From the NCBI GenBank assembly GCA_964541455.1, contig CAZIPS010000003.1, forward strand, positions 2,663 to 66,662: a stretch of DNA of 64,000 nt. Direction: 5' to 3'. This document shows, one piece after another, positions 11,610 to 63,282 of the stretch. The translations under genes were made by a program, and so were the position numbers. Every line of letters begins with the position of its first letter. Within the stretch, counting starts at the first letter, position 1. Below the pieces are notes generated by a model. It saw only the letters and a program-made list of their open reading frames with translations, made no database searches and had not been told where the DNA came from. Origin of the DNA: an uncultured Candidatus Saccharibacteria bacterium (GTDB lineage Bacteria > Patescibacteriota > Minisyncoccia > Phycocordibacterales > JAKFXT01).

Positions 11610-14600
11610 ATGTCTACAAATCCTCCTCCTGGTGATCCTGCGATTGAAAAAGGTGCCACCCTTTCGTCAAAAACCCTCGTCGAACAGGCGCTTTCCGTTC
11701 TTCAAGACAAGGAAGATCTCGAAATTAAGGATATCCTCGCTGAACTTAGCAAAAACAATACCCCCCTTGAAGAAGGCGAGGTGATTAAGGAACTCGAAGA
11801 GCTTGGGTATGATATTGAAATAGTCGACCCTCCAACTAAAACTAAGGCTTCAAACACTGAAATTCCTCCTACCCACCATACACCCTCACCAGTAAAAAAA
11901 ATTCCTTCACTTAAAGAACTAAATGCTAGGGTCAAGACGGTCGTTGATGAAAAGTATGAAGGGAAAAGACCTCCAGCACTAGAAAAGGATGTAGCGAGGA
12001 TAATGAGGGATATTTCAAACACTCTCAAGCTTATTGACGCACGTGAGGGAAAGAAAAAAACACCAGAAGACAAAGAAAAGCTCGATGATCTGTATCTTGC
12101 CTTTGAACGCCTTGTTGAGGATTTTGAAAAACATACTCCAAGCCTAGAGGAGCCAAAAAAAGAGCCGCACACAGAAAAAGACCCAGCGAAGACCGCTGCG
12201 CACCGTACCATCCCCACCCTTAAAGAACTCCGAGCTCGTGTACAGACTGTTGTTGATGAAAAGTATGGAGGGGAGAATCCTCCGGCCCTTGAGCAAGACA
12301 TCCGCGGCATAGTCAAAAATATTACTGACATTCTTGCGGAAGTCGAAAAGCGCAAAGGTAAAAGAAAAACGCGCGAAGAAAAAGAGGAGCTTGATAATCT
12401 GTATCTTGCTTTTGAACGCCTTGTTGAGGATTTTGAGAAACATACTCCGAACCTTGAAGGAGCGAAAACAGAAACTGGAGACACAACAGAGCCCGCAAAG
12501 AGAGGATGGAGTAGGGAAATGCAGCTACATACAGAACCAGCACATACCGAGGAAGAAATAGTGTTTTTGCGGAGTAAGGGATGGACTGATGATGATTTCA
12601 AACGACACAAAGAAGCTCACATAAGTGAGGAATTACTACGCGCTGAAAAAGCCCGTCTTGAGCGAGAAATTAAGCGTCTCGAAGAAAGGGACGCTCTTAC
12701 TCCCAGTGCTCTTTTTGAAGGTGAGAAATGGCTTTTGAAATACAACCTTAGACCAAATCTAGCCGAAATTAACAAAACCTTAGCCAAAATAGAGGCTAAA
12801 AAAAGTCCTGCCATACCAAGCGCTGTTGCTACACCCTCGCCAGTTGATACCTCACCTAACAGTACCCCCTCAAAAACACCCGAGACTTCAAATGATCTAT
12901 TGGAGATTGCTGAACTAGCTAAACTCCACCAAAAAAGACTTTCACTTCAACAACTTGTTGAAAGTACCATGGACCTCGACGCTCGAACTCTTTTTGAAGA
13001 AGACTTACAAAAGGTTGAGGAAGAAATACAAGAGCGCATGAAAACTGCTCCACAAGGAGGAGCGTATGAAGCGAGTGCCCGTATTGAACATGAACTTATT
13101 TCGACACCTTCCTCCCCACACGCAACTAATCCCGACCTTCTTACGCTTGAAGGACAGAAACAGGCGCGCATCGATGCCCTCCTTAATCGTCTTACCGAAA
13201 ACCCCGATGACGTAGCTGTCCTTACCGAAGTTGCTATAGGCCTTGCCAAAGAAACCAATGACCCTGATACTATCGCCGAAAACAATTTAGTAGTCACCAT
13301 GGCACAAGATGAAACAGGCCCCTCCGCACTTAGTCACCAACAAGAGATGTTAAGGGAGGAGATAGGTATACTTCAAGCAAAGCTTACTGCATTAGGATTT
13401 ATTGCCCATAAACACCCTGTAAACATTGCCACCCCCCCTTCGCCAGAAACTGAAACACAAGGAGAAACTGCCGCACTTGAAAAAGCGGCTACTGCGGGAA
13501 TCGAGCACATAGAGCGTATGCTCGATGAAAATATGGCCAATGCAAAAAAGAATTGGACTACCTACGGCAAAGCATGGGCCTTAAATGCTTTTACCGAAAT
13601 TGGCGAGCAGTATAGTAAAGCCCCCTTGAAATTAAAACTTGCCCTTTCTGCCACCCTTATTGGGGCAGGATTATTTGGTGGGGGAGCAGTGGCTGGAGCT
13701 ATCGGCAGTATTGCTCTTGCACAAAGAGCATTTGGTTTTGCAGGCACTTATGTTGGTGTAGAGGCTGTTCTTGCGCGTGTCCGTGAACAAAAATTTAGAA
13801 AAGGAAAAGAGTTAGGACTTTTTACGAGTCACACAAAAGCGACCGCTTCAGTACTCGCTGCGCTTCTCGGTTCCGCTGCGCCATACGCTTTTAGTTATGC
13901 TATGGAAGCAAGTGAAAGACAGATCGGATCACTCATCTCGAGCCCCGAAGGACAGAAAATTTTAGCTGCCTTTTTTAGCAATGAATATGTGCAGACCATC
14001 AAAGGTGCCATTCAAGACAATCTCCCTTCTCCAAAAGGAGTACCGGTTGAACGGGTAACTACAGCGTCAACTACAACTGCTGCCGAACCATCAGATGCTA
14101 CACATCAAATATCACCTACAACAAATGTCGAACATGCAACTTCTACCATTAAACAATTTACTGATGCCATCGATCGACCAGGGGACTCTGTGTGGCGCTC
14201 GATGAAAGAAATTATCCGCAACAATGCAGAAGATTTCGGTTGGAAAGAAAACAACATCACAAGCAAAGAATTGTGGCTTGATCGTCGTGTTGCCGAAATC
14301 ATGCAAAACAATCCTGACATTGCGCAGCAAAACTTAGTCCACGAAGGGGGCCAAGTACATCTTGAAATTGTTGATGGAAATATAAACGCCTACTACGAAC
14401 CCGCCAAAGGTTTTGAAAATGCCCCACAAAGTCTTCCAGAAAAAATTATGCCAACACCTGTAACCACTGAGTACGCACCACAAGAAACCTCTCTCTCCAC
14501 AACACCTACATCCCCAGTTGAACAGACTGATGTGCCGATCATTATCCATCCAACTGATATACCGGACGAAACTCCTCCAGCTTCGGAAGATGGGCAAATC

Positions 14601-15041
14601 TTTGAAGGGGCAGGGAATCGTACTTCAACCTCTATTGAAACAAAAGTTGCTGACACTCCGAAAACAACAGTGGAGCAAGTACTTTCAAAGGCAGAACTTT
14701 TACATGTTCAAACAGAAGTGGTTACCCGCATCGATAGTGAGTTTGCAAAACCATCTTTCTTTGGGTTTGGTGGAGTTCCAGGAGTTAATACCACTGAATG
14801 GTCAGACATCCAAAAAATTCCCGCAAGTGAAATTCTCGCTGCGCCAAGTTTTGAAAAATTAAATATTCGATTTAAAGAACTTGTTCCAGACCTCACCCCA
14901 TATGCATATGAAAAAGCGCACCACCTTCTTCTTGAAGCAAGTAAACAAAGTGGTACCATTCCAGTAAGTTCAGAAGATTCTTATACATACCTTACCCGAT
15001 CAGTTAAAGAACAATTTATTAAAAGTAAATACATCGCATAA
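11610..15041 (+). CDS. Giant hypothetical protein (1143 aa) with an internal tandem repeat, coiled-coil regions and a Gly-rich TM segment
   Basis: Continuous ORF. Two consecutive ~97-aa repeat units (IPSLKELNARVKTVVDEKYEGKRPPALEKD... and IPTLKELRARVQTVVDEKYGGENPPALEQD...), then a Gly/Ala-rich hydrophobic stretch (LIGAGLFGGGAVAGAIGSIALA). No recognisable catalytic domain. Confidence 0.6.
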   Translation: MSTNPPPGDPAIEKGATLSSKTLVEQALSVLQDKEDLEIKDILAELSKNNTPLEEGEVIKELEELGYDIEIVDPPTKTKASNTEIPPTHHTPSPVKKIPSLKELNARVKTVVDEKYEGKRPPALEKDVARIMRDISNTLKLIDAREGKKKTPEDKEKLDDLYLAFERLVEDFEKHTPSLEEPKKEPHTEKDPAKTAAHRTIPTLKELRARVQTVVDEKYGGENPPALEQDIRGIVKNITDILAEVEKRKGKRKTREEKEELDNLYLAFERLVEDFEKHTPNLEGAKTETGDTTEPAKRGWSREMQLHTEPAHTEEEIVFLRSKGWTDDDFKRHKEAHISEELLRAEKARLEREIKRLEERDALTPSALFEGEKWLLKYNLRPNLAEINKTLAKIEAKKSPAIPSAVATPSPVDTSPNSTPSKTPETSNDLLEIAELAKLHQKRLSLQQLVESTMDLDARTLFEEDLQKVEEEIQERMKTAPQGGAYEASARIEHELISTPSSPHATNPDLLTLEGQKQARIDALLNRLTENPDDVAVLTEVAIGLAKETNDPDTIAENNLVVTMAQDETGPSALSHQQEMLREEIGILQAKLTALGFIAHKHPVNIATPPSPETETQGETAALEKAATAGIEHIERMLDENMANAKKNWTTYGKAWALNAFTEIGEQYSKAPLKLKLALSATLIGAGLFGGGAVAGAIGSIALAQRAFGFAGTYVGVEAVLARVREQKFRKGKELGLFTSHTKATASVLAALLGSAAPYAFSYAMEASERQIGSLISSPEGQKILAAFFSNEYVQTIKGAIQDNLPSPKGVPVERVTTASTTTAAEPSDATHQISPTTNVEHATSTIKQFTDAIDRPGDSVWRSMKEIIRNNAEDFGWKENNITSKELWLDRRVAEIMQNNPDIAQQNLVHEGGQVHLEIVDGNINAYYEPAKGFENAPQSLPEKIMPTPVTTEYAPQETSLSTTPTSPVEQTDVPIIIHPTDIPDETPPASEDGQIFEGAGNRTSTSIETKVADTPKTTVEQVLSKAELLHVQTEVVTRIDSEFAKPSFFGFGGVPGVNTTEWSDIQKIPASEILAAPSFEKLNIRFKELVPDLTPYAYEKAHHLLLEASKQSGTIPVSSEDSYTYLTRSVKEQFIKSKYIA
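11898..12480 (+). repeat. In-frame tandem duplication (two copies of about 290-310 bp) within the giant ORF
   Basis: Near-identical nucleotide stretches, for example CTTGC(C/T)TTTGAACGCCTTGTTGAGGATTTTGA(A/G)AAACATACTCC at about 12091 and 12401. The protein repeat units are about 60% identical. Confidence 0.8.
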
Positions 15042-15498: not shown

Positions 15499-17448
15499 AT
15501 GTCGGAAACTCATACACTAAATAGTGAGCAACAAAAAGCCGTGGCTCACACAGAGGGTCCCCTTCTTATCCTCGCGGGAGCAGGGGCAGGCAAAACAAAA
15601 ACCATCGCCCACCGCATACTTCATCTTGTAAAAAAGGGAGTGGCTCCACACACTATTTTGGCAGTTACCTTCACCAACAAATCAGCAAGTGAAATGCGCG
15701 AACGCATCCATGGACTTATTGAGCATGATGCTACATTACATCTCCCTGTTTCTTCTCATGAACTTCCTTTTGTCTCAACATTCCACGCGCTTGGTGTCTA
15801 CATTATTAAAAGGGAAGCGGCACGCCTTAACCTTCCACGCCACTTCACTATCTTTGATCGCAGTGACTCACTCTCTGCGGTCAAAGAAGGACTAAAGCAA
15901 CTTTCTCTTGACCCAAAACAATTTGAGCCAACAAAATTTCTCAGCATTATTTCACGCAAAAAAGGGGAGGGTATTTCACTCCATGAATATGAAAGTGTCG
16001 CCACTGAAAATTATATTGATCGACTTTTATTGAGTGTATGGCAACACTACGAAAAAAAACTAAAAGAAGAAAAAGCGCTCGACTTTGACGACCTGCTTCT
16101 AAAAACAAAAAATTTGTTGCGCGACACTCCTGAAGTGCGAAAGACTTACCAAACAATGTGGCAATACATTCACATTGATGAGTATCAAGATACAAACCGT
16201 GTGCAATACGAGATCACCAAACTTCTTGCTGGAGACCAACATAATATCTGTGTTGTCGGAGACATTGATCAGAGTATTTATTCTTGGCGCGGCGCTGATT
16301 TTAAAAATATTATGCGCTTTGAAAAAGATTATCCAGAAACAGAAACTATTCTCCTTGAACAAAACTATCGTTCGAGTAAAACGATTTTGAAAGCCGCCAA
16401 CATGATCATTGAAAAGAATACGCTGCGCAAAGAAAAAAATCTTTTCACTGAAAACGAAGAAGGGGAGAAACTACTTCTTTTTGGTGCATATGATGAAGCA
16501 CAAGAAGCAGCATACATTGCTGGCAAAGCACGCAGCCTTATCGAAACGGGAGTACAAGCTTCAGAGATTGCAATACTATACCGTGCCAACTTTCAATCAC
16601 GCATCCTCGAAGAAAAATTTTTGCACGCTGACATTCCTTATCAAGTGCTCGGCGTACGCTTCTTTGAGCGCAAAGAAGTGCGCGAAGTGATTTCATATCT
16701 TCAAGCTGCTTTTAACGAAGAGAGTACTGCTGATATAAAACGCACGATCAACATGCCACCACGCGGCATCGGTAAAACAACGCTTCTTAAAATTTTTGCG
16801 CACGATGAAAAAAGTTTACCCGCGAGCACCCGCGCAAAAATTGAAACATATCGAAGCATGCTTCGTCGCATCAAAGAGGTAGCGCTTTCAACACCACTTT
16901 CAGAAACATTGCATTTCATTATCGAAGAGTCACAACTTAAAACGTATTACGAGGAAGCGGGCACTGATGGGGAAGAGCGATTAGAAAATATGTATGAACT
17001 TATTGCTGTGGGAAGTAAGTATGACCTCTTTCCTTCTGAAGAAGCGGTGGATAAATTTTTGACCGACACCGCGCTTGCAAGCGATCAAGATGATTTAAAC
17101 GAAAAGAAAAATGGGGTACGCCTCATGACCGTGCATGCTTCAAAAGGGTTGGAGTTTGATTATGTGTTTATTTCAGGGCTTGAAGAAGATTTGTTCCCAC
17201 ACGGAAAACCGGATGGTGGGAAGAAAAATATGGAAGAAAGTGAGGAAGAGCGACGCCTGTTTTACGTGGCACTCACACGCGCACGCAAAAAACTTTTCCT
17301 TACTTATGCCTCGATTCGTAGTATGTTTGGGAACCGTATGATTAACGCCCCCTCATCATTTCTCGACGACCTTGCACCGGAAATACTTGAAAGCGAGCAT
17401 GACGGACCTGACAACTACCACGGCAAAGTTATTTATCTTGAAGATTAG
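15499..17448 (+). CDS. UvrD/PcrA family ATP-dependent DNA helicase
   Basis: 649 aa with LNSEQQKAVAH...LILAGAGAGKTKTIAHRI (motifs Q, I), a DEYQDTN motif and a C-terminal UvrD_C segment (VRLMTVHASKGLEFDYVFI). Confidence 0.9.
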   Translation: MSETHTLNSEQQKAVAHTEGPLLILAGAGAGKTKTIAHRILHLVKKGVAPHTILAVTFTNKSASEMRERIHGLIEHDATLHLPVSSHELPFVSTFHALGVYIIKREAARLNLPRHFTIFDRSDSLSAVKEGLKQLSLDPKQFEPTKFLSIISRKKGEGISLHEYESVATENYIDRLLLSVWQHYEKKLKEEKALDFDDLLLKTKNLLRDTPEVRKTYQTMWQYIHIDEYQDTNRVQYEITKLLAGDQHNICVVGDIDQSIYSWRGADFKNIMRFEKDYPETETILLEQNYRSSKTILKAANMIIEKNTLRKEKNLFTENEEGEKLLLFGAYDEAQEAAYIAGKARSLIETGVQASEIAILYRANFQSRILEEKFLHADIPYQVLGVRFFERKEVREVISYLQAAFNEESTADIKRTINMPPRGIGKTTLLKIFAHDEKSLPASTRAKIETYRSMLRRIKEVALSTPLSETLHFIIEESQLKTYYEEAGTDGEERLENMYELIAVGSKYDLFPSEEAVDKFLTDTALASDQDDLNEKKNGVRLMTVHASKGLEFDYVFISGLEEDLFPHGKPDGGKKNMEESEEERRLFYVALTRARKKLFLTYASIRSMFGNRMINAPSSFLDDLAPEILESEHDGPDNYHGKVIYLED

Positions 17449-17485
17449 CCATCCTTAGTGAGGTTAATTATCCACCATAGAATCA

Positions 17486-17514
17486 TTGACTTTTTAAGTC
17501 TTTTGCGGTTTAAT
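17486..17514 (+). promoter_or_regulatory. Near-consensus sigma70 promoter of cassette C (TTGACT-17-TTTAAT)
   Basis: -35 TTGACT at 17486-17491, 17-nt spacer, -10 TTTAAT at 17509-17514. SD AGGAGG lies 6 nt before ATG 17548. Confidence 0.6.
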
Positions 17515-17547
17515 TTACGTAAACTAACCACACCTAGGAGGTGTGCC

Positions 17548-18138
17548 ATGAAGTTCTTCAGAATCACACTGTTCGCGGCTTTCGGCCTCGGCCTGACGTA
17601 TACTTCGTCGTTCGGGCAACAGCTCGCAGCTCTGGCCCCCACAAGCGAAGCGGTGAAGTGCCAGGCCAAACTCTCCCTCGAGGAAACCCCCGAAACAAAG
17701 GTGGCGCTCGAGGAAAACGAGTACCCAGAAACCGCGACCCCCGTTCTCGCATACGCCCTGCGGCAAATCGCTTGCCTTGAAGGCGAGTCCGAGGTCCAGA
17801 TCTCCCTCAAGATCCTCTCTATCGACTGGGACTGGACACCGGGAGGAGCGTTTGTTTCGGTCTTCACCGGCATCTTCGGTGGACCAAGCAACTCACTGGG
17901 GTCCATCAAGGGGAAGGCGGCAGTTGAAATAACTGTTCGCACCAAGGGAAAGGTGGTCACGGCACAAGGCGCAGCAGAGGAGAAAACCCTCTACAAGCCC
18001 GAACCGAAAATGATCATCGACGATCGCCCAGCACTCCCCATCGGCGGCGGATGGTCACGGCCGAACAACAAGGTTGGGGGAATGCTCCTCAATCAAGCAA
18101 TCGGCCAGGCCCTCAAGAAGGCCTTCGAGCAACTGTAG
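17548..18138 (+). CDS. Hypothetical secreted protein, GC-rich cassette C (196 aa, N-terminal signal peptide)
   Basis: About 58% GC. Signal peptide MKFFRITLFAAFGLGLTYTSSFGQQ, strong SD and its own terminator. The fold family is not recognisable. The ORF track starts at an upstream GTG at 17458. Confidence 0.6.
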   Translation: MKFFRITLFAAFGLGLTYTSSFGQQLAALAPTSEAVKCQAKLSLEETPETKVALEENEYPETATPVLAYALRQIACLEGESEVQISLKILSIDWDWTPGGAFVSVFTGIFGGPSNSLGSIKGKAAVEITVRTKGKVVTAQGAAEEKTLYKPEPKMIIDDRPALPIGGGWSRPNNKVGGMLLNQAIGQALKKAFEQL

Positions 18139-18152
18139 AGGCGATGCCACTA

Positions 18153-18180
18153 CAGCCCCCGGGTTCGCCCGGGGGTTTTA
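18153..18180 (+). terminator. Intrinsic terminator of cassette C
   Basis: CCCCCGGG-TTCG-CCCGGGGG followed by TTTT. Confidence 0.8.
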
Positions 18181-18186
18181 CATTAT

Positions 18187-18972
18187 ATGAAACCAAAAAA
18201 ACAATTAGGGCAAAATTTCCTTACCTCTTCTCAAGTAGTAGAGGATATTGTGCGTGCAGGAGATATTGGGAGCAATGATATTGTCCTTGAAATTGGCCCT
18301 GGAAAGGGATTTTTAACACAAAAACTCCTTGAAAAGGCAAAAAAAGTGATCGCCATTGAGAAAGACAGGGAGCTTATCCCATTTTTGCAAGAAAAATTTG
18401 CTTTTTTTATAGAAAATGGACAACTTGAGCTTGTTGAAGCTGACATCCTCCTCTATGACCCTGCCCTACACAGCCTAAAGGCACAAGGGTATAAGCTTAT
18501 TGCAAACATTCCATACTATATTACAGGGGAAATCCTCCAAAAATTCCTAGAAACCCCTCTTCACCCCTCACTTATGGTGCTTATGGTCCAAAAAGAGGTG
18601 GCGGCCCGCATTATAGCTACAAACAAGAAAGAAAGCCTTTTGTCTCTGAGTGTAAAAGCTTATGGCACGCCCTCTATAGTACGAAAAGTAGGAAAGGGGA
18701 GCTTTTACCCATCCCCGTCTGTTGATTCAGCGGTTATCAAAATAGCCACTATTTCTAAAAATTTCTTTGGAAAAGTAGGCGAGAAAGCCTTTTTTACCAC
18801 CCTAAAAACTGGTTTTTCTCACAAAAGAAAGTTTTTAATCAACAATCTAACTCCACTTGCTGAAAAAGTGGTTCTCGAAACACTTTTTGCCGATCTTGAG
18901 CTCCCACTCACTATCCGAGCTGAAGATGTGTCATTAGAAAACTGGAAGCAACTCACTTCTCACCTTTCTTGA
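18187..18972 (+). CDS. rsmA: 16S rRNA (adenine1518/1519-N6)-dimethyltransferase
   Basis: 261 aa beginning KKQLGQNFLTSSQVVEDIV..LEIGPGKGFLT, the KsgA/RsmA signature. Confidence 0.9.
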   Translation: MKPKKQLGQNFLTSSQVVEDIVRAGDIGSNDIVLEIGPGKGFLTQKLLEKAKKVIAIEKDRELIPFLQEKFAFFIENGQLELVEADILLYDPALHSLKAQGYKLIANIPYYITGEILQKFLETPLHPSLMVLMVQKEVAARIIATNKKESLLSLSVKAYGTPSIVRKVGKGSFYPSPSVDSAVIKIATISKNFFGKVGEKAFFTTLKTGFSHKRKFLINNLTPLAEKVVLETLFADLELPLTIRAEDVSLENWKQLTSHLS

Positions 18973-19063: not shown

Positions 19064-20128
19064 ATGGAAAGCTTTGCAAAATTTTTGCCGAGCCGGCAGT
19101 TTGGGGTTGTTATTGCCTCGATCTTTTTAGCCTGCGCATTAGTAGGTAGCGTGTTCTATCTCAAAAAAAATAAGGAACAGAAAAGTGACATTGCACTTTT
19201 AAATGGGCCGAGTATCGAAGCGGTAACTGATGCTACTAAAAATCTAAGTGATGATGTTGCTGATATCGATACTGACCATGATGGCCTTAAGGATTGGGAA
19301 GAAGTCCTATGGGAAACCGACCCTAAAAACCCCGACACCGATCATGATGGCACCCCTGATGGGGAAGAAGTAAGACTTGGGAGAAATCCTCTAGTAAAGG
19401 GACCTAACGACAGTCTCAAAGAGGTGAGTAAAAATATAAGTACTGCATCATCCGCCCCGATTGTACTCACCCCCACTGATATCGTGGCACGTGATTTTTT
19501 CTCAAAATATCTTGAGGCTAAGCAAACAGGAAAAGATATTGATGCCAAGACCCAAGAGGAAATCATTGCTTCTGTTATTTCACGCCAAGACCTCGTGCAG
19601 AGCGCCAAAGCATATAGCAAAGAACAGCTAACCATAAGTACTAAAAATGATGAGGCGTCACTAAGGGCATATGGCAACGCTATGGGGCTTATTTTTAAAA
19701 ACACTGCCACTTGGAAAGAAAGTGAGATAGACATCATGCAAGAAGCTCTTAACAAAAATGATGAAAAAAGACTTGAGGCACTGGATACTAACATTAATGG
19801 ATACCAATCTATTCTTAATCAAAGCCTAAAAGTGGTTGTACCAAGCAAAGCAGTTGATGTCCATCTCCGCTATATAAACGCTTATAGCAAAATCGTCACC
19901 GCACTTACTGCTATGAAAAATACATTTAAAGACCCCGTAAGTGCCCTTATCCTTCTTGGTAAATACCCAGATGCTATTACCGAACTCCACCAGTCTTTTA
20001 TCGACGCGAGAAGTTTTTTTACCCGAAACAATATTACCTTTGACCTAAAAACTGAAACAGGAATTTTCTTTGCTAATTTTGCTGATGCAGTCGACATCAA
20101 GACAAAGGAGAATGCTGGAACCCAATAA
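19064..20128 (+). CDS. Membrane-anchored protein with thrombospondin-type-3-like Ca-binding repeats (DTDHDG...DPKNPDTDHDGTPDGEE)
   Basis: 354 aa with an N-terminal TM helix and two DxDxDG calcium-binding-like repeats. The remainder is unrecognisable. First gene of the T4SS-like block. Confidence 0.5.
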   Translation: MESFAKFLPSRQFGVVIASIFLACALVGSVFYLKKNKEQKSDIALLNGPSIEAVTDATKNLSDDVADIDTDHDGLKDWEEVLWETDPKNPDTDHDGTPDGEEVRLGRNPLVKGPNDSLKEVSKNISTASSAPIVLTPTDIVARDFFSKYLEAKQTGKDIDAKTQEEIIASVISRQDLVQSAKAYSKEQLTISTKNDEASLRAYGNAMGLIFKNTATWKESEIDIMQEALNKNDEKRLEALDTNINGYQSILNQSLKVVVPSKAVDVHLRYINAYSKIVTALTAMKNTFKDPVSALILLGKYPDAITELHQSFIDARSFFTRNNITFDLKTETGIFFANFADAVDIKTKENAGTQ

Positions 20129-20133
20129 TCTAT

Positions 20134-21747
20134 ATGCTAGAACTTCTTTTTAAAATTAAAAAATCTTTTTACGCAAAAATTCTTGTATCTTTTCTTATTA
20201 TCGCCTTTTTCGCTCCCATGGCACTCCCACCAAAAGCAGATGCAGGGGGAATGGCAGTCTTCGATTCAATTGGTGCAGCTCTTAAAACCGCCGGTAATGC
20301 AATTTTGACTATTATAAGCACTATTTCAAATGCGATTATTGGTGCCGGTATCCAAGCTCTTGTTACTGCCAAATACATCTTAGGCCCCCTTGCCACAACA
20401 ATTGCGAAAATGATCCTGCGGGGTATTACGGCAAGTATTATCGCTTGGATAAGTAATGGGTTCCAAGGAAGCCCCTCCTTTATCCAAGATCCCAAACGAT
20501 TCTTCACTAATGTAGCTGATCAGGCAATCGGTGCAGTTCTACTATCAAATGAAGCAACTAAATGGATGTGTACCCCATTTGCAATCAATATAAAACGAGC
20601 CCTTATCTACAATCGCTCTTTCTATCAACGTTCTCAGTGTAGCCTCACGCAAGTCGTAAATAACTTCAAAGGCTTTGCAAGTGGACTTAATAACCAATTC
20701 GGCAGTCTTGGTGGTTGGACTGCGTGGAACACTATGACATACGAGCCACAAAATAATCCCTACGGAGCCTATGCCCTCTTTAATATGCAGGTTGATGTAC
20801 AAGTAACCGGCGCCATCAATACCCAAGCCCGCTTACTCGACTGGGGTAAAGGTTTTCTTTCCTGGAAAGACCCAACATGTGTCGAAAATGCTAAAAGAAA
20901 TTCCGACCTTGAGGGCTATAAAACAGGCGATGAAATCGTTCCCCTTGAAGAAAGTGAGGGCAATACCATTAGTCCAAACACTGACCCAAATACCTGCCCG
21001 ATTCTTACTCCAGGTGATGTTATTGCAAATCAAATAAACAAGACTATCGGAAGCGATGTTGATCAGCTTGTAGGTGCACAAGAGATCAATCAGATTATTA
21101 GTGCACTCCTTTACCAACTTGCAGTTAAAGCACTTGGTGGCTCTGGCCTTCTTGGACTTGGCGCTTCATACTCCGATCCTTACGGCACAAATGGAAGCTA
21201 TGCTCAACAACTTCTCGCAAATGATCAACAGGTATTCAATCAAACTCGCAGTGACTTAAACCAACAAATATACAACCGCATCACCACCGAAAACAACTAC
21301 TCTGCAACAAAAAACCAAACACTTTCTCTTATAGATCTTTCTGCTAATAAAGCGTTTTCAGTCCTTAATTGCTACTTTGCAACTTCTTCTACTCCACTTG
21401 GTATCAACAACAGCATGCGTGCTACTGATATAGCAGGAGCTTCAAGTTCACTTGCCTTTATAAACGGCTTCAAGCGTTCTATACAACGTGACGTCGACAT
21501 ATCAGATATAAACATCAGTAACCTCCAACGCCTTGTTGATGCCTCAAACGCCTTAGACTACAGCCACAGAGATACTCTGCAACAAATCTCATCACAATTC
21601 TCACAACTCATCACGCAAATCCACTCTGACGGCGATGTTATAAACGCCCAGTTTGAACGTGACCAGACTATACCTGACGCCATGAAAGCTCCTGATGCCG
21701 ACAATGACACTCGCCTTAATCGCTGTTACACCGAACCTATTAACTAG
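20134..21747 (+). CDS. Hypothetical exported protein (537 aa) in the T4SS-like cluster
   Basis: N-terminal hydrophobic anchor or signal, then a Cys-containing Gly/Ala-rich region. No recognisable domain. Confidence 0.45.
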   Translation: MLELLFKIKKSFYAKILVSFLIIAFFAPMALPPKADAGGMAVFDSIGAALKTAGNAILTIISTISNAIIGAGIQALVTAKYILGPLATTIAKMILRGITASIIAWISNGFQGSPSFIQDPKRFFTNVADQAIGAVLLSNEATKWMCTPFAINIKRALIYNRSFYQRSQCSLTQVVNNFKGFASGLNNQFGSLGGWTAWNTMTYEPQNNPYGAYALFNMQVDVQVTGAINTQARLLDWGKGFLSWKDPTCVENAKRNSDLEGYKTGDEIVPLEESEGNTISPNTDPNTCPILTPGDVIANQINKTIGSDVDQLVGAQEINQIISALLYQLAVKALGGSGLLGLGASYSDPYGTNGSYAQQLLANDQQVFNQTRSDLNQQIYNRITTENNYSATKNQTLSLIDLSANKAFSVLNCYFATSSTPLGINNSMRATDIAGASSSLAFINGFKRSIQRDVDISDINISNLQRLVDASNALDYSHRDTLQQISSQFSQLITQIHSDGDVINAQFERDQTIPDAMKAPDADNDTRLNRCYTEPIN

Positions 21748-21749
21748 CT

Positions 21750-24218
21750 ATGTTACGCACTGCAAAAAAAGCTCTTCTTACGTCCGTCTTTCTTGCAGGA
21801 GCTTTTTTGCCTTTTACTACTTTTGCGCAAACAATTAATGATAGTGATACTGGCGGGGGAGTAAGTGTTAGTGCACTCAAAAACACTTCTGCTCAAACCG
21901 TCACCGCGTCAGAAATACAACTGCAAGCAAGAGAGAATGCTCGTGACGCATCACTACAACAATCCCTTGGCAACGGGAACGTCACTGACCCAGGGGTAGC
22001 TGCTGCAGCTCCCTCTGGTACATTTTCTGCCCCAGGAACCGCTCCCTCGCTCTCTTCTTCGGGGGCCCAAGCAACTAAAGACCTCAACCTTGCTTCAGTT
22101 GACCTTTGTTCAATTAGCTTTACAGGAACCTTCCAACCACTCAACTGTCTCGGGTACGGACTTCTCAAAATAGGGGGGTGGGTAGCAACGGTAGGCGGTG
22201 TCTTTCTCAACCTCTCGATTGATTTTACTGTGCTTAAAATGTCTACCGTCATTAACGGCACTGGTGCTATTAATGCTGCTTGGAAAGTGTTCCGCGATCT
22301 TTCAAATATTTTCTTTATTTTTATCCTTATTTATATCGCTATAAGCACTATTATCGGGACCGCTGGAGGACAAACCAAAAAAATGCTGATCAATGTCATC
22401 ATTGTGGCACTTCTCATCAACTTCAGCATGTTTTTTACTAAAGTTGCAGTCGACACCTCAAATATTCTCACCATTCAGTTCTTCAACTCTATTAGCAAAG
22501 GAGACAATAGCTGGGACAACGGCCTCTCTTGGGTCTTTATGAATGCCTCGCGCCTCACTACCATCTACCAAGCGGGGAACACCATCGCCACAAGTCCAAA
22601 TGGCAAAGCGTTTCTTAGTTACAACTTTCTCATTGTTGGGATTATGGGGCTCGCCTTTGCCCTCGTGCTTGCTTTTGTGTTTATGGCGATTGCCATTATG
22701 TTTATTTCTCGTTTTGTCACTATTATTTTCCTTATTGTACTTTCACCGCTCGCTTTTATGGGCTTTGCGGTGAGCAAATTAAGTGGCAAATGGCATCAAT
22801 GGCTCTCTGTGCTCACAGAACAAATCTTCTTCGCTCCTGTTATGATGGCTATGCTTTGGACTGTTGCGGTTATTATAAATAGTGACGGCTTCCGTGCAGC
22901 AGTTGCCTTTTCTGACCCGGCCAATAACTTCGCCGACCTCTTCACCCTTTCTTCCGTTACAGGGTCTATATATATAGTCTTAAACTTTAGCCTCCTTGTT
23001 GCCCTTCTTATTGGTGGCCTCCTTATATCAAAGAACTTTAGTCATACAAGTGCGAACTTTGCAATGAAACTCGCAGGGGGGGCCTCTTTTGGGGCAGCGG
23101 CGTGGATTGGGCGCAAAACAGGAGGGTGGGCTGGAAACAAACTTGCCAAATCAGAACGCTTGCAGAAATTTGCAGCTAATAATCCTACTGTTGGTATGTT
23201 TGCACTTAAAGCGGTCAAGGGGGTTGCTTCTGCCAGCTTTGACGCTCGCAATATTCCCCACGCAAGCGACTATCTCGGCAAGGGACCTGGGACAGGGGGT
23301 TATGTTGGCGAACTTGAAGCTCAAGTAAAGAAACGTCAAGAGGATGCAAAACTTCTCAAAGACCTCAAGCTATATCAAGACTCGAAAACTGAAGGGGAGG
23401 CAAAGGCTCACAAAGAAACAGTTGAGGAGAAAGACAAAAAAGTGGTTGAGCTTAACAAGCAGATGGCTAACTTTATTGCCGCTGGCAACAACCTTAACGA
23501 TACACGCTACAAGGAGTTTGAGAGGGAGAAAGCTGAAGCGGTTAAGGCACGTGATGAAGCTAAGAAAAAACTTGAGACCCTCAATAAGGACCAGACCAAG
23601 ACCCAAACAGGGGAGCAGACCTATGCTAAGAATCTTACTAAGGGCACCATTGCTGCTATCATGACTCGCCTTGCTGCAGAGCGTGAAAAATCTCAAGAGA
23701 AGATTGAGGAATCATATACCAAGGACCGTCAAAAGAAAGACAGCGAATGGGCCAAAGAATTTAATCTTAAGGAGATTAACCGACAAATTGCTTCTCTTGA
23801 TGCAGAAATCGAGTCTCTTGGGAGCTCGGTCTTGAATGTCACCGAAGAGGTAAAAAACTGGAATGAGCAGATTGCTAAAAATAACAAAGAAATTGAAAAA
23901 ATAACTCTAGACCAAAAAAATAATCCAAATGTTGATATCATCGCTTCAAACAAAAGAAGAAAGATTATTGCGGAGGAAAACGGAAAAATACAGGAAAGCA
24001 TCAATGCAGTAAAAGCTAATGAGTCAACTATTGCCGAACAAAAGAAAATTCGACTCATAGCAGAAAGAGAAAAGCTTATTAATCAACGAAAAGAGATTCA
24101 AAATAAAAAGGATAGAGATGCTCTTCTAAAAACACTTGTTGACGCAACAAAACCGGAAGAGGCTCAAGGAGAAGAAAAGAAGGGTGAGGATAAGCCAAAA
24201 AAGGATGATGCACACTAA
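21750..24218 (+). CDS. VirB6/TrbL-like polytopic membrane protein with a C-terminal Lys/Glu-rich coiled-coil extension
   Basis: 822 aa with a signal peptide, at least 6 TM helices in a TrbL/VirB6-like arrangement (LIVGIMGLAFALVLAFVFMAIAIMFISRFVTIIFLIVLSPLAFMGF) and a long charged coiled-coil tail. Confidence 0.55.
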   Translation: MLRTAKKALLTSVFLAGAFLPFTTFAQTINDSDTGGGVSVSALKNTSAQTVTASEIQLQARENARDASLQQSLGNGNVTDPGVAAAAPSGTFSAPGTAPSLSSSGAQATKDLNLASVDLCSISFTGTFQPLNCLGYGLLKIGGWVATVGGVFLNLSIDFTVLKMSTVINGTGAINAAWKVFRDLSNIFFIFILIYIAISTIIGTAGGQTKKMLINVIIVALLINFSMFFTKVAVDTSNILTIQFFNSISKGDNSWDNGLSWVFMNASRLTTIYQAGNTIATSPNGKAFLSYNFLIVGIMGLAFALVLAFVFMAIAIMFISRFVTIIFLIVLSPLAFMGFAVSKLSGKWHQWLSVLTEQIFFAPVMMAMLWTVAVIINSDGFRAAVAFSDPANNFADLFTLSSVTGSIYIVLNFSLLVALLIGGLLISKNFSHTSANFAMKLAGGASFGAAAWIGRKTGGWAGNKLAKSERLQKFAANNPTVGMFALKAVKGVASASFDARNIPHASDYLGKGPGTGGYVGELEAQVKKRQEDAKLLKDLKLYQDSKTEGEAKAHKETVEEKDKKVVELNKQMANFIAAGNNLNDTRYKEFEREKAEAVKARDEAKKKLETLNKDQTKTQTGEQTYAKNLTKGTIAAIMTRLAAEREKSQEKIEESYTKDRQKKDSEWAKEFNLKEINRQIASLDAEIESLGSSVLNVTEEVKNWNEQIAKNNKEIEKITLDQKNNPNVDIIASNKRRKIIAEENGKIQESINAVKANESTIAEQKKIRLIAEREKLINQRKEIQNKKDRDALLKTLVDATKPEEAQGEEKKGEDKPKKDDAH

Positions 24219-24233
24219 TATATAATAGAGAAT

Positions 24234-25397
24234 ATGGAAGACACGAGTGTTCAACAGAAATTTGAAAAACTGCCGGCAGTTATTCGCGAAGCGATTACTT
24301 CTGTTGATTTTGCAGAAAAACTTCAAAACATAGGCAAGGCAAACAGCCTCCACCTCGATGAACTTGACGCGCTTTTTGAAGAAGTGGGATTTGTGATGCT
24401 TGGGGACACTCGCACGCAAGATTTTGGAGCTAAAATAAGCGAACGTCTCTCGCTTCGCCCAGATCAAGTTGCTCCTATAGTTAAAAGTGTTGATGAGGAA
24501 ATATTCCGCCCGATCCGCACTGCGCTCATCAGCCTCCACGACAATGAACCTCGTCGCATTACCGACGTCCCACTCCCTGCAGCAAGTGCACCTTCATATG
24601 TTCCCCCAGTTCCACAAAAAAACTCTTTACCCACAACCCCCGAAAGTAATCTTGCGCCAAAACCAATAACCGTTAAGGAGGAGTTGTCAGCTCCAACCAT
24701 ACACCCTATATACAATGATAAAAGTATAGAAACTCAAATACCAAGTTCCCCACAGACCCTAGGGGATGGAGTAGTGGTTACTCCAGAAATAAGCGCCCTA
24801 AACGAAGAAACGCCAACTCGCGAAAACCTTCTTAATGCTATTGAAGGGGAGAAAGAAATGGACCCCGCTCTCCTTACCCCACATCGCCAACTTGAATCCC
24901 AAGATCCACGCACCTATCTCATAGACAAAGAAGAATTTCTGAAGAAAATCACTGAACCAAGCAGTGGCTCCACCCCCGCAACACTTACCCCCAAAAAACG
25001 TTCGTTAGCCGAAGAAGCGGTGTTAGTAGCAAAGCGAAAAGTAGACCCAACTGCTCTAAATATGCAGAGCATTATAGCCAAAACACCGAAACCAACTACA
25101 GAATCAGCTCCTATTACTACTATCCCTCCTGTCCCCGCCACTCCTCCCACAATTACGTTGGATATTCCTCGCACTGAAGAACAGGCGTCTGTGCAAACAC
25201 CTCCCGAAGCAATCTATACACTTCCAAAAGAAATAGCCCCCACCCAACCCATCACCCTTGAAGCAAAACAGAAACTTACCTCCATGGTTCAGGTTCCTCG
25301 CGTCACAAGTAGAGTGAGCGCCCCGCTCACCGCTACTTCAACTGTCACTACAGAAACTACAGGAAGTAGGGTAGACCCATATCGCGAACCTATATAA
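24234..25397 (+). CDS. Hypothetical Pro/Thr-rich protein (387 aa) in the T4SS-like cluster
   Basis: Low-complexity P/T/S-rich C-terminal two thirds. The N-terminal 100 aa are globular and unrecognisable. Confidence 0.4.
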   Translation: MEDTSVQQKFEKLPAVIREAITSVDFAEKLQNIGKANSLHLDELDALFEEVGFVMLGDTRTQDFGAKISERLSLRPDQVAPIVKSVDEEIFRPIRTALISLHDNEPRRITDVPLPAASAPSYVPPVPQKNSLPTTPESNLAPKPITVKEELSAPTIHPIYNDKSIETQIPSSPQTLGDGVVVTPEISALNEETPTRENLLNAIEGEKEMDPALLTPHRQLESQDPRTYLIDKEEFLKKITEPSSGSTPATLTPKKRSLAEEAVLVAKRKVDPTALNMQSIIAKTPKPTTESAPITTIPPVPATPPTITLDIPRTEEQASVQTPPEAIYTLPKEIAPTQPITLEAKQKLTSMVQVPRVTSRVSAPLTATSTVTTETTGSRVDPYREPI

Positions 25398-25529
25398 AGC
25401 GTAAGCTTTGTGTTGTTTATACCACCCACCCTTAATCAACACGACATATCCTCTTATCTGCGCGACAAAGAGCGCAATCTCTTATATTATTAGAGATACC
25501 AAGCGCATTGTCGTTTCAGTATTTTTTAT

Positions 25530-26051
25530 ATGCAATTCCAAGTTCCTCAATTTATTGAAGTAGAAGACAAGCTTTTTGGTCCTCTTACCCTTAAACAATT
25601 CATTTATCTTGCTGGGGGAATAGGTGTTTCGGCGATCTTCTACCTTGTTATTCCTTACCACTTTATTGCCATAGTTCTTGCGGTTCCTTTCGTTGTTTTT
25701 GCGATTGCCTTAGCTTTCTACCGCATTAACAGTAAACCATTTGTTGAGGTGCTTGAGGCAGCACTTTCCTACTACTTTAAAAACAAGCTTTATATATGGA
25801 AGAAATCCGACAAGAAAATTGAGGATCGTCCAAAAGAAGAAGTATCTGAACCCTCTCTCGATACACTTTTTGCCCCACGCCTCTCTGAAAGCAAGCTCAA
25901 AGATCTCGCGTGGAGCCTTGATGTTACTGATAAAGTAATAAACAAAGAGGTTCAAAGGGGAGGGGGGTCCCGCATTACGTATAACGAAGACGAGCGCGAG
26001 AAAGTTGAGTTCCAGAAAAACTACGAAATTGGAGCTAAGGGGCACCTATAG
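25530..26051 (+). CDS. PrgI/VirB3-like small membrane protein
   Basis: 173 aa with two adjacent N-terminal TM helices (LAGGIGVSAIFYLVIPYHFIAIVLAVPFVVFAIALAFY) directly upstream of the VirB4 ATPase, matching typical PrgI-family topology and placement. Confidence 0.5.
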   Translation: MQFQVPQFIEVEDKLFGPLTLKQFIYLAGGIGVSAIFYLVIPYHFIAIVLAVPFVVFAIALAFYRINSKPFVEVLEAALSYYFKNKLYIWKKSDKKIEDRPKEEVSEPSLDTLFAPRLSESKLKDLAWSLDVTDKVINKEVQRGGGSRITYNEDEREKVEFQKNYEIGAKGHL

Positions 26052-26056
26052 AACAT

Positions 26057-26692
26057 ATGGCTACTGAACAAACATCAGCAACACAAGAATTCGTCCCTAT
26101 CAAAGAGGTACGTGACGGCATTGTCCTCCTTAAAGACGGAGGTCTGCGTGCAATTCTTCTAACCTCTTCTATTAACTTCGCCCTCAAATCACAGGACGAG
26201 CAAAATTCCGTTATTTTCCAATTCCAAAACTTCCTTAACTCTTTAGACTTTCCTGTAGAAATCTTCATTCAATCAAGGAAACTCGATATTCGCCCCTACA
26301 TTGCTCTCCTCGAAGACCGCTATCGAGATCAAGTTAATGATCTACTTAAAATACAGACTCGTGAGTACATCGAGTTCATAAAAAGCTTTACTGAAAGTGC
26401 TAATATCATGACTAAAAGCTTCTTTATTATTGTCCCCTACAATCCAGCAAGCCTTACCGCTGAATCAGTTGGTGGGTTCTTTAGTAAGAAAAAAGATGAA
26501 GACAAAACAAAGGATGCGGCTGCACGCTTCGAAGAAAACCGCAGCCAACTCGAGCAACGCATTGCTGTTATCGAACAAGGACTTATACGTACAGGAGTTC
26601 GTGTCGTACAATTAGGTACTGAAGAAATTATTGAACTTTACTACAAGATCTTTAACCCTGGAGAGCAGGACAAGCCAATTAAGTTGCCATAA
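26057..26692 (+). CDS. Putative N-terminal segment of the VirB4-like ATPase (split gene), or a separate T4SS accessory protein
   Basis: 211 aa ending at a TAA 2 nt before the ATG of the Walker-A-containing ORF, which is in a different frame. Combined length of about 817 aa matches full-length VirB4/TrbE. Confidence 0.4.
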   Translation: MATEQTSATQEFVPIKEVRDGIVLLKDGGLRAILLTSSINFALKSQDEQNSVIFQFQNFLNSLDFPVEIFIQSRKLDIRPYIALLEDRYRDQVNDLLKIQTREYIEFIKSFTESANIMTKSFFIIVPYNPASLTAESVGGFFSKKKDEDKTKDAAARFEENRSQLEQRIAVIEQGLIRTGVRVVQLGTEEIIELYYKIFNPGEQDKPIKLP

Positions 26693-26694
26693 TT

Positions 26695-28515
26695 ATGGGT
26701 GTTTTCGATTTCCTTATTACGAATAAGAAAAAAGAAGCAGGGAATGCGCTCACCGCTATTTTGCCGCGAGACATCTATGAATCTGGTGTTTTGGAACTTA
26801 AAGACATTATTGCCCCCTCTGCACTTAAAATCACGCCCAAAGAGCTCAATTTGGGCGAGAAAATTATTCGTACCTTTTTTGTTATCTCTTATCCTCGTTT
26901 TCTTTCGGAAAGTTGGTTTGCGCCGATTATTAACCTCGACAAGGTGTTTGACGCTTCTATTTTTATTCACCCTATTGAAACCGCTCGCATTTTAAGGCAA
27001 TTCCAGAAAAAAGTAGCGGAGGTACAAAGCCAAATCCACGAGAGAGAGGAGAAGGGGTTAGTGCGTGATCCCGTGCTTGATACCGCCTACCAAGACCTTG
27101 AACAGCTTCGTGACGGCCTTCAGCAAGCACAAGAACGTATTTTTGATGTTGGGCTCTATATATCTATTTACGGTGATTCTGATGCCGAACTTGATAAGGT
27201 AGAGTCTGAAATTAAATCTATCCTCGAATCAAAGTTGGTGTATATAAAACCAGCCCTCTTTCAACAAGAACAAGGGTTTAAAAGCGTTATTCCTCTTGGA
27301 AATGATGAGTTAGCAGTTCATTCAAAACTTAACTCTTCGCCACTTTCAAGTGTTTTTCCTTTCATCTCTTTTGACCTCACTTCAGACAAGGGAATTCTTT
27401 ATGGCATCAACCGACACAATGCAAGTTTGGTACTTTTTGACCGCTTCTCTCTTGAAAATTACAACTCTGTCGTCTTTGCGAAGTCTGGATCTGGTAAGTC
27501 CTACACCACCAAACTCGAGATCCTCCGTACCCTTATGTTTGACACTGAAGTGATTGTTATTGATCCCGAGCGCGAATACGAATATTTAGCCGAAGCCACC
27601 GGCGGACGCTATTTTAATGTTTCGCTTAATTCTGAACACCACATTAACCCTTTTGATCTTCCCATCCCACGCGAAGACGAATCCCCAGCTGATATTCTTC
27701 GCAGCAACATTGTAAACCTCGTAGGGCTTTTCCGTATCATGATGGGGGGGCTCACTCCCGAAGAAGATGCCATTATTGACCGCGCAATTACTGAAACCTA
27801 TGCCCTCAAAGACATTACCCCTGAATCAGACTTTACTGCTATCGAACCCCCACTTATGGCTGACTTTGAACTTGTGCTTTCGGGCATGGAAGGAGGGGAT
27901 TCCTTGGCACAACGACTTACTAAATACACTAAGGGAACATGGGCTGGCTTTATCAACAAGCCGACAAACGTCGACATTAATAAAAAGTTTGTTGTGTTTT
28001 CTGTGCGTGATATGGAGGATGAGCTTAAACCTGTTGCCATGTATATCATTACGCACTTTATTTGGAATGCTATACGCAAAGAAATTCGAAAACGTCTCCT
28101 TGTTATCGATGAAGCATGGTGGATGATGAAATCAGATGATACTGCCTCTTTCCTCTATAGTCTTGTAAAACGTGGTCGTAAATACTTCCTTGGAGTAGCG
28201 ACAATTACCCAAGACGTCGATGACTTCCTTAAAAGCCAGTATGGGCTCCCCATTATCACCAACTCATCGCTTCAACTTCTCCTTAAACAATCTCCATCAT
28301 CAATCGATAATGTTCAAAAGATATTTAACCTTACCGAAGAAGAGAAATATCTACTCCTTGAGTCAGACGTAGGGGAGGGGATTTTCTTCGCAGGACTAAA
28401 ACACGTGGCGATTAAGATCATTGCCTCATACACCGAGGACCAGATTATTACCTCTGACCCTTCTCAAGTGCTTTCGATCAGAAAAGCCAAAAATGATTTG
28501 CGCCTTGCTTCTTAA
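26695..28515 (+). CDS. VirB4/TrbE/CagE-family type IV secretion ATPase (C-terminal NTPase portion)
   Basis: 606 aa with Walker A (VVFAKSGSGKSYTTK) and a Walker B-like motif (LLVIDEAWWMM). Confidence 0.8.
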   Translation: MGVFDFLITNKKKEAGNALTAILPRDIYESGVLELKDIIAPSALKITPKELNLGEKIIRTFFVISYPRFLSESWFAPIINLDKVFDASIFIHPIETARILRQFQKKVAEVQSQIHEREEKGLVRDPVLDTAYQDLEQLRDGLQQAQERIFDVGLYISIYGDSDAELDKVESEIKSILESKLVYIKPALFQQEQGFKSVIPLGNDELAVHSKLNSSPLSSVFPFISFDLTSDKGILYGINRHNASLVLFDRFSLENYNSVVFAKSGSGKSYTTKLEILRTLMFDTEVIVIDPEREYEYLAEATGGRYFNVSLNSEHHINPFDLPIPREDESPADILRSNIVNLVGLFRIMMGGLTPEEDAIIDRAITETYALKDITPESDFTAIEPPLMADFELVLSGMEGGDSLAQRLTKYTKGTWAGFINKPTNVDINKKFVVFSVRDMEDELKPVAMYIITHFIWNAIRKEIRKRLLVIDEAWWMMKSDDTASFLYSLVKRGRKYFLGVATITQDVDDFLKSQYGLPIITNSSLQLLLKQSPSSIDNVQKIFNLTEEEKYLLLESDVGEGIFFAGLKHVAIKIIASYTEDQIITSDPSQVLSIRKAKNDLRLAS

Positions 28516-28520
28516 TATTC

Positions 28521-30195: not shown

Positions 30196-30199
30196 TTTT

Positions 30200-30832: not shown

Positions 30833-30835
30833 TAT

Positions 30836-33670: not shown

Positions 33671-33805
33671 TTAGACACTTAGCTTCTTTCTTCCTTGGGC
33701 TCGGCGGCGGGCAAGCACTTTCTTACCCCCAGCAGTTGCACTACGGACCAAAAAACCATGTGTGGTGGCTCTTTTCTTCTTTTTTGGTTGATATGTTTTT
33801 GACAT
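33671..33805 (-). CDS. rpmH: 50S ribosomal protein L34
   Basis: 44-aa ORF absent from the ORF track. Translates to [44 protein letters not shown], a canonical L34 immediately upstream of rnpA. Confidence 0.9.
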
Positions 33806-33974
33806 TGGGGTGTAGTATAGCCTATTCTCGCTCTTTTGGAAATAGCTTCGCTTTTTAAAAAGGTTTAATTACTTACCCACATGTTATACCCATATTTATC
33901 ACCATAACCCTCCTTTTCTGGTAAGTGTTGCAGTTTTCTAAGAAGAGTATAATAGGGGACACTAATATATTCTT

Positions 33975-35490: not shown

Positions 35491-35507
35491 ACGTAATTAT
35501 CTGTTGT

Positions 35508-36602: not shown

Positions 36603-36604
36603 AC

Positions 36605-36859: not shown

Positions 36860-36864
36860 AAAAC

Positions 36865-63281: not shown

Positions 63282-63282
63282 T

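Follow-up and report, generated by a model that had tools for sequence, protein, structure and literature searches.

An apparently lineage-restricted gene for a predicted exported protein in a GC-rich cassette between uvrD and ksgA of a Saccharibacteria-like bacterium

We analysed a 64,000-nucleotide (nt) stretch of contig CAZIPS010000003.1, referred to here as the window, and focused on a short GC-rich unit, cassette C, that separates uvrD from ksgA. The host of the cassette is a Saccharibacteria-like bacterium from the CPR (candidate phyla radiation), and the location is chromosomal. The explanation that we consider probable is that cassette C is a genuine unit encoding an exported envelope or surface protein found only in this lineage, and that it is an old, vertically inherited resident of the uvrD-ksgA junction which was lost from a sister genome, represented here by locus L014.

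A conserved gene at the uvrD-ksgA junction

All of the sequence features that a preliminary description had named for cassette C (TTGACT-17-TTTAAT, AGGAGG, a 196-amino-acid (aa) open reading frame (ORF), the Gly-rich stretch inside that frame and a GC stem-loop) were read directly from the window where that description had placed them. Its account of the unit as compositionally foreign, at about 58% GC, is likewise true as a description, the ORF having 58.0% GC compared with 42.5% in uvrD and 40.1% in ksgA. Judged from these features, cassette C appears to be a self-contained, compositionally deviant single-gene transcription unit, with the following layout (coordinates are those of the 64-kb window, on the + strand unless marked; GC3 is the GC fraction at third codon positions).

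15499..17448, +: uvrD, UvrD/PcrA-family helicase, 649 aa, 42.5% GC, upstream flank (the identical gene in L001/L006 matches Pfam UvrD-helicase and UvrD_C)
17486..17491, +: -35 hexamer TTGACT (kept in the orthologous locus L031)
17509..17514, +: -10-like hexamer TTTAAT, separated from the -35 hexamer by a 17-nt spacer (kept in the orthologous locus L031)
17510..17527, +: near-palindrome TTAATTTACGTAAACTAA over the -10 hexamer and transcript start of cassette C (inverted-repeat search)
17529..17545, +: 7-bp hairpin CACACCU-AGG-AGGUGUG enclosing the Shine-Dalgarno sequence (folding)
17536..17541, +: Shine-Dalgarno sequence AGGAGG, 6 nt before the ATG at 17548 (sequence)
17548..18138, +: cassette C reading frame of 196 aa and a stop codon, 58% GC, GC3 0.71 (ORF list, composition, orthologue P0002)
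17548..17616, +: predicted Sec signal peptide, residues 1-23, cleavage at SFG/QQ (hydrophobicity heuristic, -3/-1 rule)
17836..17901, +: loop 1, conserved, Gly-rich and hydrophobic, residues 97-118, TPGGAFVSVFTGIFGGPSNSLG, flanked by two long beta strands (alignment, models)
17995..18066, +: loop 2, conserved, residues 150-173, including D.RPAL.IGGGW..PN, preceding the C-terminal helix (alignment, models)
18154..18179, +: terminator-like hairpin with a 10-bp stem, 8-bp G+C core and UUCG loop, then TTTT (folding, inverted repeat)
18187..18972, +: ksgA/rsmA, 16S rRNA dimethyltransferase, 261 aa, 40.1% GC, downstream flank (Pfam RrnaAD)

The promoter of cassette C is more than a chance match. The pattern TTGACT-N17-TWTAAT occurs twice in the 64 kb when both strands are counted, compared with 0.03 occurrences expected, and the two matches belong to cassette C and to a second GC-rich cassette at 45387. 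The cassette C promoter went uncalled in a generic scan because TTTAAT does not have the canonical A at position 2, and the same scan missed the terminator on account of its short T tract. The terminator hairpin proper spans 18154..18177, with the core CCCCCGGG/CCCGGGGG, and is followed by four T only; the 55-nt segment that contains it (18136..18190) folds at -24.7 kcal/mol, with z = -2.95 against shuffles. The hairpin around the Shine-Dalgarno sequence and its 6-bp counterpart in L031 gave folding z-scores of -0.9 and -1.2, respectively, neither of which is significant alone. In the mechanism that we propose, a sigma-70-type promoter would drive cassette C from a transcription start a few bases past 17514, the hairpin enclosing the Shine-Dalgarno sequence may damp or regulate translation, and the near-palindrome may be an operator or a regulatory site for ksgA. 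Just 7 nt lie between the terminator hairpin and the ATG of ksgA, and the only sequence resembling a Shine-Dalgarno site for ksgA is the GGGGG arm of that hairpin. Since there is no promoter in this interval, ksgA expression probably relies on read-through from cassette C or uvrD.

Several lines of evidence establish that cassette C is a real gene, fixed in the species. An identical or 97%-identical protein with the same flanks was present in at least 13 contigs from independent assemblies. These fall into two strain types, with 2.0% of sites differing between them in cassette C, 1.1% in uvrD and 3.4% in ksgA, and with both intergenic spacers nearly identical; the divergence of cassette C is thus in step with that of its neighbours, and the gene moves along with its flanks within the species. 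In a more distant relative, the loci L030/L031 encode an orthologue, P0002, likewise between the end of uvrD and ksgA. Comparison of the two genes gave a dN (nonsynonymous divergence) of 0.50 and a dS (synonymous divergence) of 2.16, hence a dN/dS of ~0.23, and cassette C is under purifying selection.

GC-rich DNA yields long ORFs, and the gene is indeed overlapped by an antisense ORF of 171 aa and by several others of 50-80 aa, so we also considered that the insert might be non-coding, either an RNA gene or a mobile-element relic, with its ORFs a mere by-product. The + frame, however, is kept at full length in an orthologue of 43% identity, at the dN/dS given above, and has a Shine-Dalgarno sequence 6 nt before its ATG, whereas the antisense ORF is not conserved and is broken in L030. 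In addition, the region gave no Rfam family at threshold and carries no terminal repeats of the transposon, miniature inverted-repeat transposable element (MITE) or integron attC type. The non-protein reading is effectively refuted, and we give it almost no weight: the + frame ORF is the gene.

Searches for relatives returned members of the same lineage only. Scans of the cassette C protein and its orthologue against Pfam, NCBIfam and PHROG gave no match, for Pfam and NCBIfam not even at E-values up to 10, and a profile-based sequence search of the PDB gave nothing meaningful, merely MetN NIL-domain noise at E 0.05. When 1.84 billion representative proteins were searched exhaustively with phmmer, P0001 (97% identity) and P0002 (42-43% identity, E 1.7e-37) were recovered; two further matches were low-complexity repeat proteins and were dismissed as noise. 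Word-indexed and profile searches of 5.8 billion proteins turned up no relative other than P0001 and P0002, and a pattern scan of metagenomes led back to the same two loci. No match was obtained by tblastn against plasmids and phages or in IMG/VR scans, which were run for cassette C and for two other cassettes of the window, A and D. Rfam searches of the region and of the whole window yielded nothing above threshold except 5 transfer RNAs (tRNAs), and we found nothing specific in the literature on GC-rich cassettes in Saccharibacteria. As far as these searches reach, the protein family appears to be confined to a narrow lineage and to be truly new.

History and composition of the locus

The arrangement of the locus in relatives suggests that cassette C arrived long ago. 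Both L030 and L031 keep the TTGACT-17-TTTAAT promoter, GGAGG and TGCCATG of cassette C; L031 has its 6-bp hairpin at the position of the hairpin enclosing the Shine-Dalgarno sequence, and L030 has an equivalent terminator hairpin followed by six T 3' of the orthologue. Since a more distant relative has its orthologue at this junction and under this promoter, the arrival of cassette C would predate a divergence of dS above 1.

The third lineage, L014, is annotated as an uncultured Saccharibacteria metagenome-assembled genome and has no cassette C; the stop of its uvrD and the start of its ksgA are just 34 nt apart. Its sequences place it closer to the window organism than L030/L031. The UvrD C-terminus is 91% identical to that of the window in L014 (84% over the whole protein) and 80% in L030/L031, and the gene after ksgA is 73% identical in L014 and 57% in L030/L031. 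For KsgA, which is 68% identical to the window in L030/L031, the proportion of nonsynonymous differences from the window (pN) is 0.19 in L014 and 0.22 in L030. Within the 34-nt spacer of L014, positions 7961..7972 hold TAATTTACGTAA, an exact copy of the 12-mer at 17511..17522 of the window that none of 500 shuffles matched; these 12 bases come from the near-palindrome in the -10 and leader region of cassette C. With the cassette and a shared promoter in both the window and the outgroup, and a promoter remnant in L014, the simplest reading points to one old gain and one loss in L014. The ancestor shared by the window and L030/L031 organisms would thus already have had cassette C at this junction, under its present promoter. 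Later inheritance would have been vertical, with the cassette changing at a higher rate than the genes beside it and being deleted in the L014 lineage. That loss suggests that the cassette is dispensable.

Mobile-element marks are few at the borders. Apart from one imperfect repeat considered below, we found no bounding repeats, attC, tRNA or recombinase there. A tyrosine recombinase gene (712..1629, - strand; Phage_integrase and an N-terminal SAM-like domain, probably XerC/D-like) is the only one among the scanned window ORFs; it lies 16 kb from cassette C and adjoins no cassette. As to the spacers of the orthologous loci, in L031 (300..700) about 400 bp with long perfect palindromes, CTGTTAGACACCGAGTGTCTAACAG and AAACTATGTTAGACACTCGGTGTCTAACATAGTTT, separate uvrD from the cassette, and in L030 (748..964) 216 bp of 54% GC with further hairpins lie between the cassette and ksgA. 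These spacers may be remnants of other inserts.

The deviant composition of cassette C is shared by its orthologue. The ORF has 58.0% GC in a window of 43.0%, and its GC3 of 0.706 compares with a window median of 0.386 and values of 0.35-0.38 in its neighbours. Orthologues of host-like composition, which the preliminary description had set against a foreign origin, were found in part: a related genome does carry an orthologue, but that gene is itself GC-enriched, at 53% GC compared with 39% in its ksgA and GC3 0.57 compared with 0.37, an intermediate outcome. The most stable compositional trait is the preference for C over T in two-fold degenerate codons ending in a pyrimidine (NNY), which reaches 85% in cassette C and 87% in the orthologue, compared with 38-39% in host genes. 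Ordinary translational selection does not explain this bias, because small genes at 59.8-62.8 kb, which we take to be ribosomal-protein-like, show the opposite one, with 21% of their NNY codons ending in C. A rough estimate of neutral amelioration, based on a two-state relaxation model and a ksgA dS of 1.34, put GC3 at a maximum of ~0.58 whatever the starting value, and the orthologue, at 0.57, agrees with it. Polarising the substitutions in cassette C left too few sites, since 7 of the 12 differences were unpolarisable.

These data bear on the proposal of the preliminary description that cassette C might have been acquired from the host, for which it pointed to high-GC actinobacteria. A recently acquired gene of this kind, used as a secreted effector, would fit the 58% GC and GC3 of 0.71 within a genome of 43% GC, the sharp boundaries at ORF and terminator, the absence of the cassette from the sister L014, a product that is probably exported, and the presence of three other GC-rich cassettes in the window, which suggests a common foreign source. 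Against this, none of the searched proteins, plasmids, phages or IMG/VR sequences gave a homologue in any high-GC organism or elsewhere outside the lineage, and the sole relatives, P0001 and P0002, come from the same lineage and the same locus. Moreover, a more distant relative carries the 43%-identical orthologue at the uvrD-ksgA junction with the same AT-rich promoter, within-species divergence is like that of the flanks, and the absence from L014 has the look of a loss. Recent acquisition from a host is not supported, and we regard it as quite unlikely; an ancient foreign origin is possible. The foreign composition of cassette C is old, and the deviant GC is not a sign of recent transfer, having persisted past a dS above 1.

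Of the known classes of inserted genes, phage morons as conceived by Hendrix and Juhala, which are extra ORFs between conserved genes with their own promoter and terminator and a differing GC content (PMC2920897), offer a parallel. Cassette C resembles them as a single ORF between conserved adjacent genes, variably present among relatives, with its own promoter and terminator, both kept in the orthologue, and with 58% GC compared with 40-42.5% in its flanks. Unlike morons, it is flanked by the chromosomal housekeeping genes uvrD and ksgA near oriC, has no relatives in PHROG, phages or IMG/VR, and appears old and vertically inherited. Acquired genomic islets and ORFans share with cassette C a deviant composition and codon usage, a patchy distribution, small size and no detectable function; they differ in that no donor was found for cassette C, no tRNA, integrase or repeat of the usual kind marks its borders, and its deviant GC3 has outlasted a dS above 1.

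The predicted protein

The product of cassette C plausibly carries a cleavable Sec signal peptide. This judgement, which agrees with the preliminary description, is drawn from heuristics alone: an n-region MKFFR is followed by a 13-residue h-region, ITLFAAFGLGLTY, whose best 11-residue Kyte-Doolittle window scores 2.15, and by the candidate cleavage site SFG/QQ, which shares its alignment column with VIA/QQ of P0002. Conservation sets in again right where the mature protein is predicted to begin, at QQ[LM]A[AV]L[AS]PT. Sec export with cleavage after Gly23 would release a mature protein of ~173 aa starting QQLAALAPT. The cassette C protein has no lipobox, its first Cys being residue 38 (35 in P0002), well past the h-region. 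Cys38 and Cys76 are invariant and probably form one disulfide. The best-conserved segments are TPGG-x5-FTGIFG-x5-LG and D-x-RPAL-x-IGGGW-x2-PN.

AlphaFold2 was run twice, with the full-length and the mature sequence and with three sequences each time. Both models have the order beta-alpha-alpha-beta-[loop 1]-beta-beta-[loop 2]-alpha, in which the two loops have a low pLDDT (predicted local distance difference test score), and the fold is probably of the LptE/CsgG type, a two-layer alpha/beta sandwich. In Foldseek searches of the PDB, the CsgG pre-pore 4uv2 supplied the best matches of the full-length model (nine chains, E from 1.3e-3 to 1.5e-2, with probabilities reaching 0.99), while the mature model matched LptE (E 5.6e-4, probability 1.00, template modelling (TM) score 0.40-0.46). 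A search of a viral library gave ERF/Rad52-like matches only, at E 1e-2. When compared by hhalign, the probability was 0.1% for Escherichia coli CsgG and 0.2% for E. coli LptE. The protein is a member of neither the LptE nor the CsgG family.

The possible likeness to LptE (PF04390) lies in the best structural match of the low-confidence mature model, 4q35_B (E 5.6e-4, TM-score 0.40-0.44), a two-layer alpha/beta sandwich of similar size. Unlike LptE, an outer-membrane lipoprotein of lipopolysaccharide (LPS) assembly, the cassette C protein has neither sequence similarity to that family nor a lipobox, and we saw no LptD-like gene among the scanned window ORFs and no LPS context in the window. 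The pre-pore of the curli secretion channel CsgG (PF03783) is the best match of the full-length model (E 1.3e-3, probability 0.96-0.99) and also has two flexible conserved loops projecting from the sandwich; here the differences are TM-scores of 0.29-0.37 and a root-mean-square deviation above 10 A to the cassette C model, the missing lipobox, no csgE/F/A/B neighbours, and a length of 196 aa compared with 277 aa.

These matches raise the idea that the protein is a small CsgG/LptE-type pore whose Gly-rich loops refold into membrane-inserting beta-hairpins, possibly in the membrane of a host. In keeping with it, the PDB matches of both models named above are of this type (LptE at E 6e-4), and the two best-conserved segments are low-confidence Gly-rich loops of 20-24 residues that follow the second strand and precede the C-terminal helix. 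The two transmembrane hairpins of CsgG emerge at topologically similar positions. However, TM-scores are just 0.25-0.46, hhalign probabilities 0.1-0.2% for the two E. coli proteins, and no Pfam match appears even at E 10. The loops do not have a clean alternating hydrophobic pattern, neither a lipobox nor, among the scanned window ORFs, an LptD or curli partner is present, and Saccharibacteria are not known to have an outer membrane. We hold such a pore to be highly improbable. In our preferred explanation, the mature protein would instead fold as the two-layer sandwich, display two Gly-rich loops and act through them as a surface or binding factor, either within the envelope or extracellularly. 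The preliminary description had likewise suggested a secreted effector or surface factor, and a secreted or surface role is plausible.

Some of our own observations weigh against the explanation of an old, exported resident. On the side of history, ancestry with a single loss is drawn from three lineages, and an imperfect 9-nt direct repeat (7/9), TTTACGTAA and TTTACATTA, brackets the body of the cassette and is compatible alike with deletion microhomology and with an insertion footprint. The GC3 of 0.71 in the window gene, after ~1 synonymous substitution per site and lineage, exceeds the neutral amelioration maximum of ~0.58, so that a later replacement of cassette C, or selection on its composition, is possible. 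On the side of the protein, the h-region is just moderately hydrophobic, and the confidence of the AlphaFold2 models, built from a three-sequence input, is low (pLDDT 56 and 60; predicted TM-score 0.52 and 0.54). TM-scores to LptE and CsgG stay below 0.5, and the fold match may be generic, the ERF/Rad52-like matches being equally weak.

Sibling cassettes, wider window and significance

Cassette C is one of four GC3 outliers, cassettes A to D, among 62 window ORFs, and none of the four matched a family in Pfam or PHROG scans. Cassettes A (3524..3958, +; 144 aa, 60% GC, GC3 0.71) and B (4082..4519, +; 145 aa, 51% GC, GC3 0.57) stand in tandem, with an NYN-domain gene on one side and pnp on the other, and a hairpin with a T-run comes after each of them. 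Their upstream regions are alike (CCTATTT..GAATA..TTTGTTCC.GGCCC); neither has a signal peptide, and both occur in at least 6 assemblies. Cassette D (45387..45955, +) lies between pilB and tsaE and combines TTGACT-17-TATAAT with a gene of 59.5% GC for a 161-aa lipoprotein with the lipobox LFGGC. Its comparison loci are L034 (6001..6489) and L038 (2072..2557); a sister species carries an orthologue of 73% identity and GC3 0.75 at the same pilB-tsaE junction. A further candidate, cassette E (63218..63631, -; GC3 0.53), was rejected, as it overlaps tRNA-Arg(tct) at 63207..63281 and has an implausible, Arg-rich translation. When cassettes A-E and P0002 were compared with all window ORFs by phmmer, no paralogues were found, and the cassettes are mutually unrelated. 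Like integron gene cassettes, those of the window are small single-ORF units between other genes, several per region; unlike them, they have their own promoters, and we found no attC-like repeat and no adjoining IntI.

The siblings also bear on whether the high GC is actively maintained, by messenger RNA or codon selection or by allele exchange, with the four cassettes forming a strongly expressed accessory class. This would account for the NNY bias that cassette C and its orthologue keep despite a dS of ~2, and for cassettes C and D owning the sole TTGACT-17-TWTAAT promoters of the window. It also fits the orthologue of cassette D, whose GC3 remains 0.75 while synonymous sites of the flanks are saturated, and whose proportion of synonymous differences (pS) is 0.59 compared with 0.72-0.78 in the flanks. 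Copies of cassette D from one species show differences at 57 of 486 nt (11.7%), compared with 24 of 2388 in polA and 10 of 1668 in pilB (flanks, 0.6-1.0%); its history is therefore uncoupled from that of its flanks, and cassette D is either hypervariable or an exchanged allele. On the other hand, the presumed ribosomal-protein-like genes have the opposite NNY bias, the GC3 of the cassette C orthologue has come down to 0.57 as amelioration would have it, and polarised substitutions in cassette D lean from GC to AT (22 compared with 12, non-significant). Cassette C itself behaves as a stable resident. On balance we think maintained GC unlikely.

More speculatively, the lineage might keep small, strongly promoted, GC3-rich cassettes A-D as fast-evolving envelope or host-contact factors, their composition preserved by selection or allele exchange, and the loops of cassette C might insert in a membrane as those of CsgG do, for example to tap a host cell. 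We judge this combination very unlikely.

Elsewhere in the window, a long co-directional cluster that resembles a type IV secretion system begins right after ksgA (19064..32116, +). It comprises a TSP3-repeat protein, PrgI-like and TraC-like proteins, a VirB4/TraG-type ATPase and large membrane or secreted proteins that belong to no family, and it is also conserved in L014, the sister genome without cassette C. Upstream of uvrD, 11610..15041 (+) encodes an 1143-aa protein with no real Pfam match, in which a ~110-aa internal duplication, seen by eye (…LKELNARVKTVVDEKYEGKRPPALEKDV… / …LKELRARVQTVVDEKYGGENPPALEQDI…), is followed by a hydrophobic segment; in relatives it is conserved upstream of a DUF5663 gene. 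An AT-rich zone of 28-30% GC at 33700..36900 contains dnaA (33975..35315) and dnaN (35508..36602) and is therefore probably the chromosomal origin region.

Taken together, the sequence evidence presents cassette C as a finding that is ordinary in its category, a single-gene genomic islet encoding an orphan protein that is probably exported. It is mildly interesting as a new family with Gly-rich loops, and for a lasting GC3 deviation that it shares with its sibling cassettes; if this persistence is selected, it would pose a small but real puzzle as to how codon usage and GC evolve in reduced genomes. CPR bacteria that live as episymbionts rely on surface contact with a host, and most candidate contact factors are unannotated orphans. 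Being clade-restricted, probably exported, equipped with a strong conserved promoter and seemingly dispensable in a sister lineage, cassette C is a reasonable candidate for an accessory factor of the envelope or of host range.

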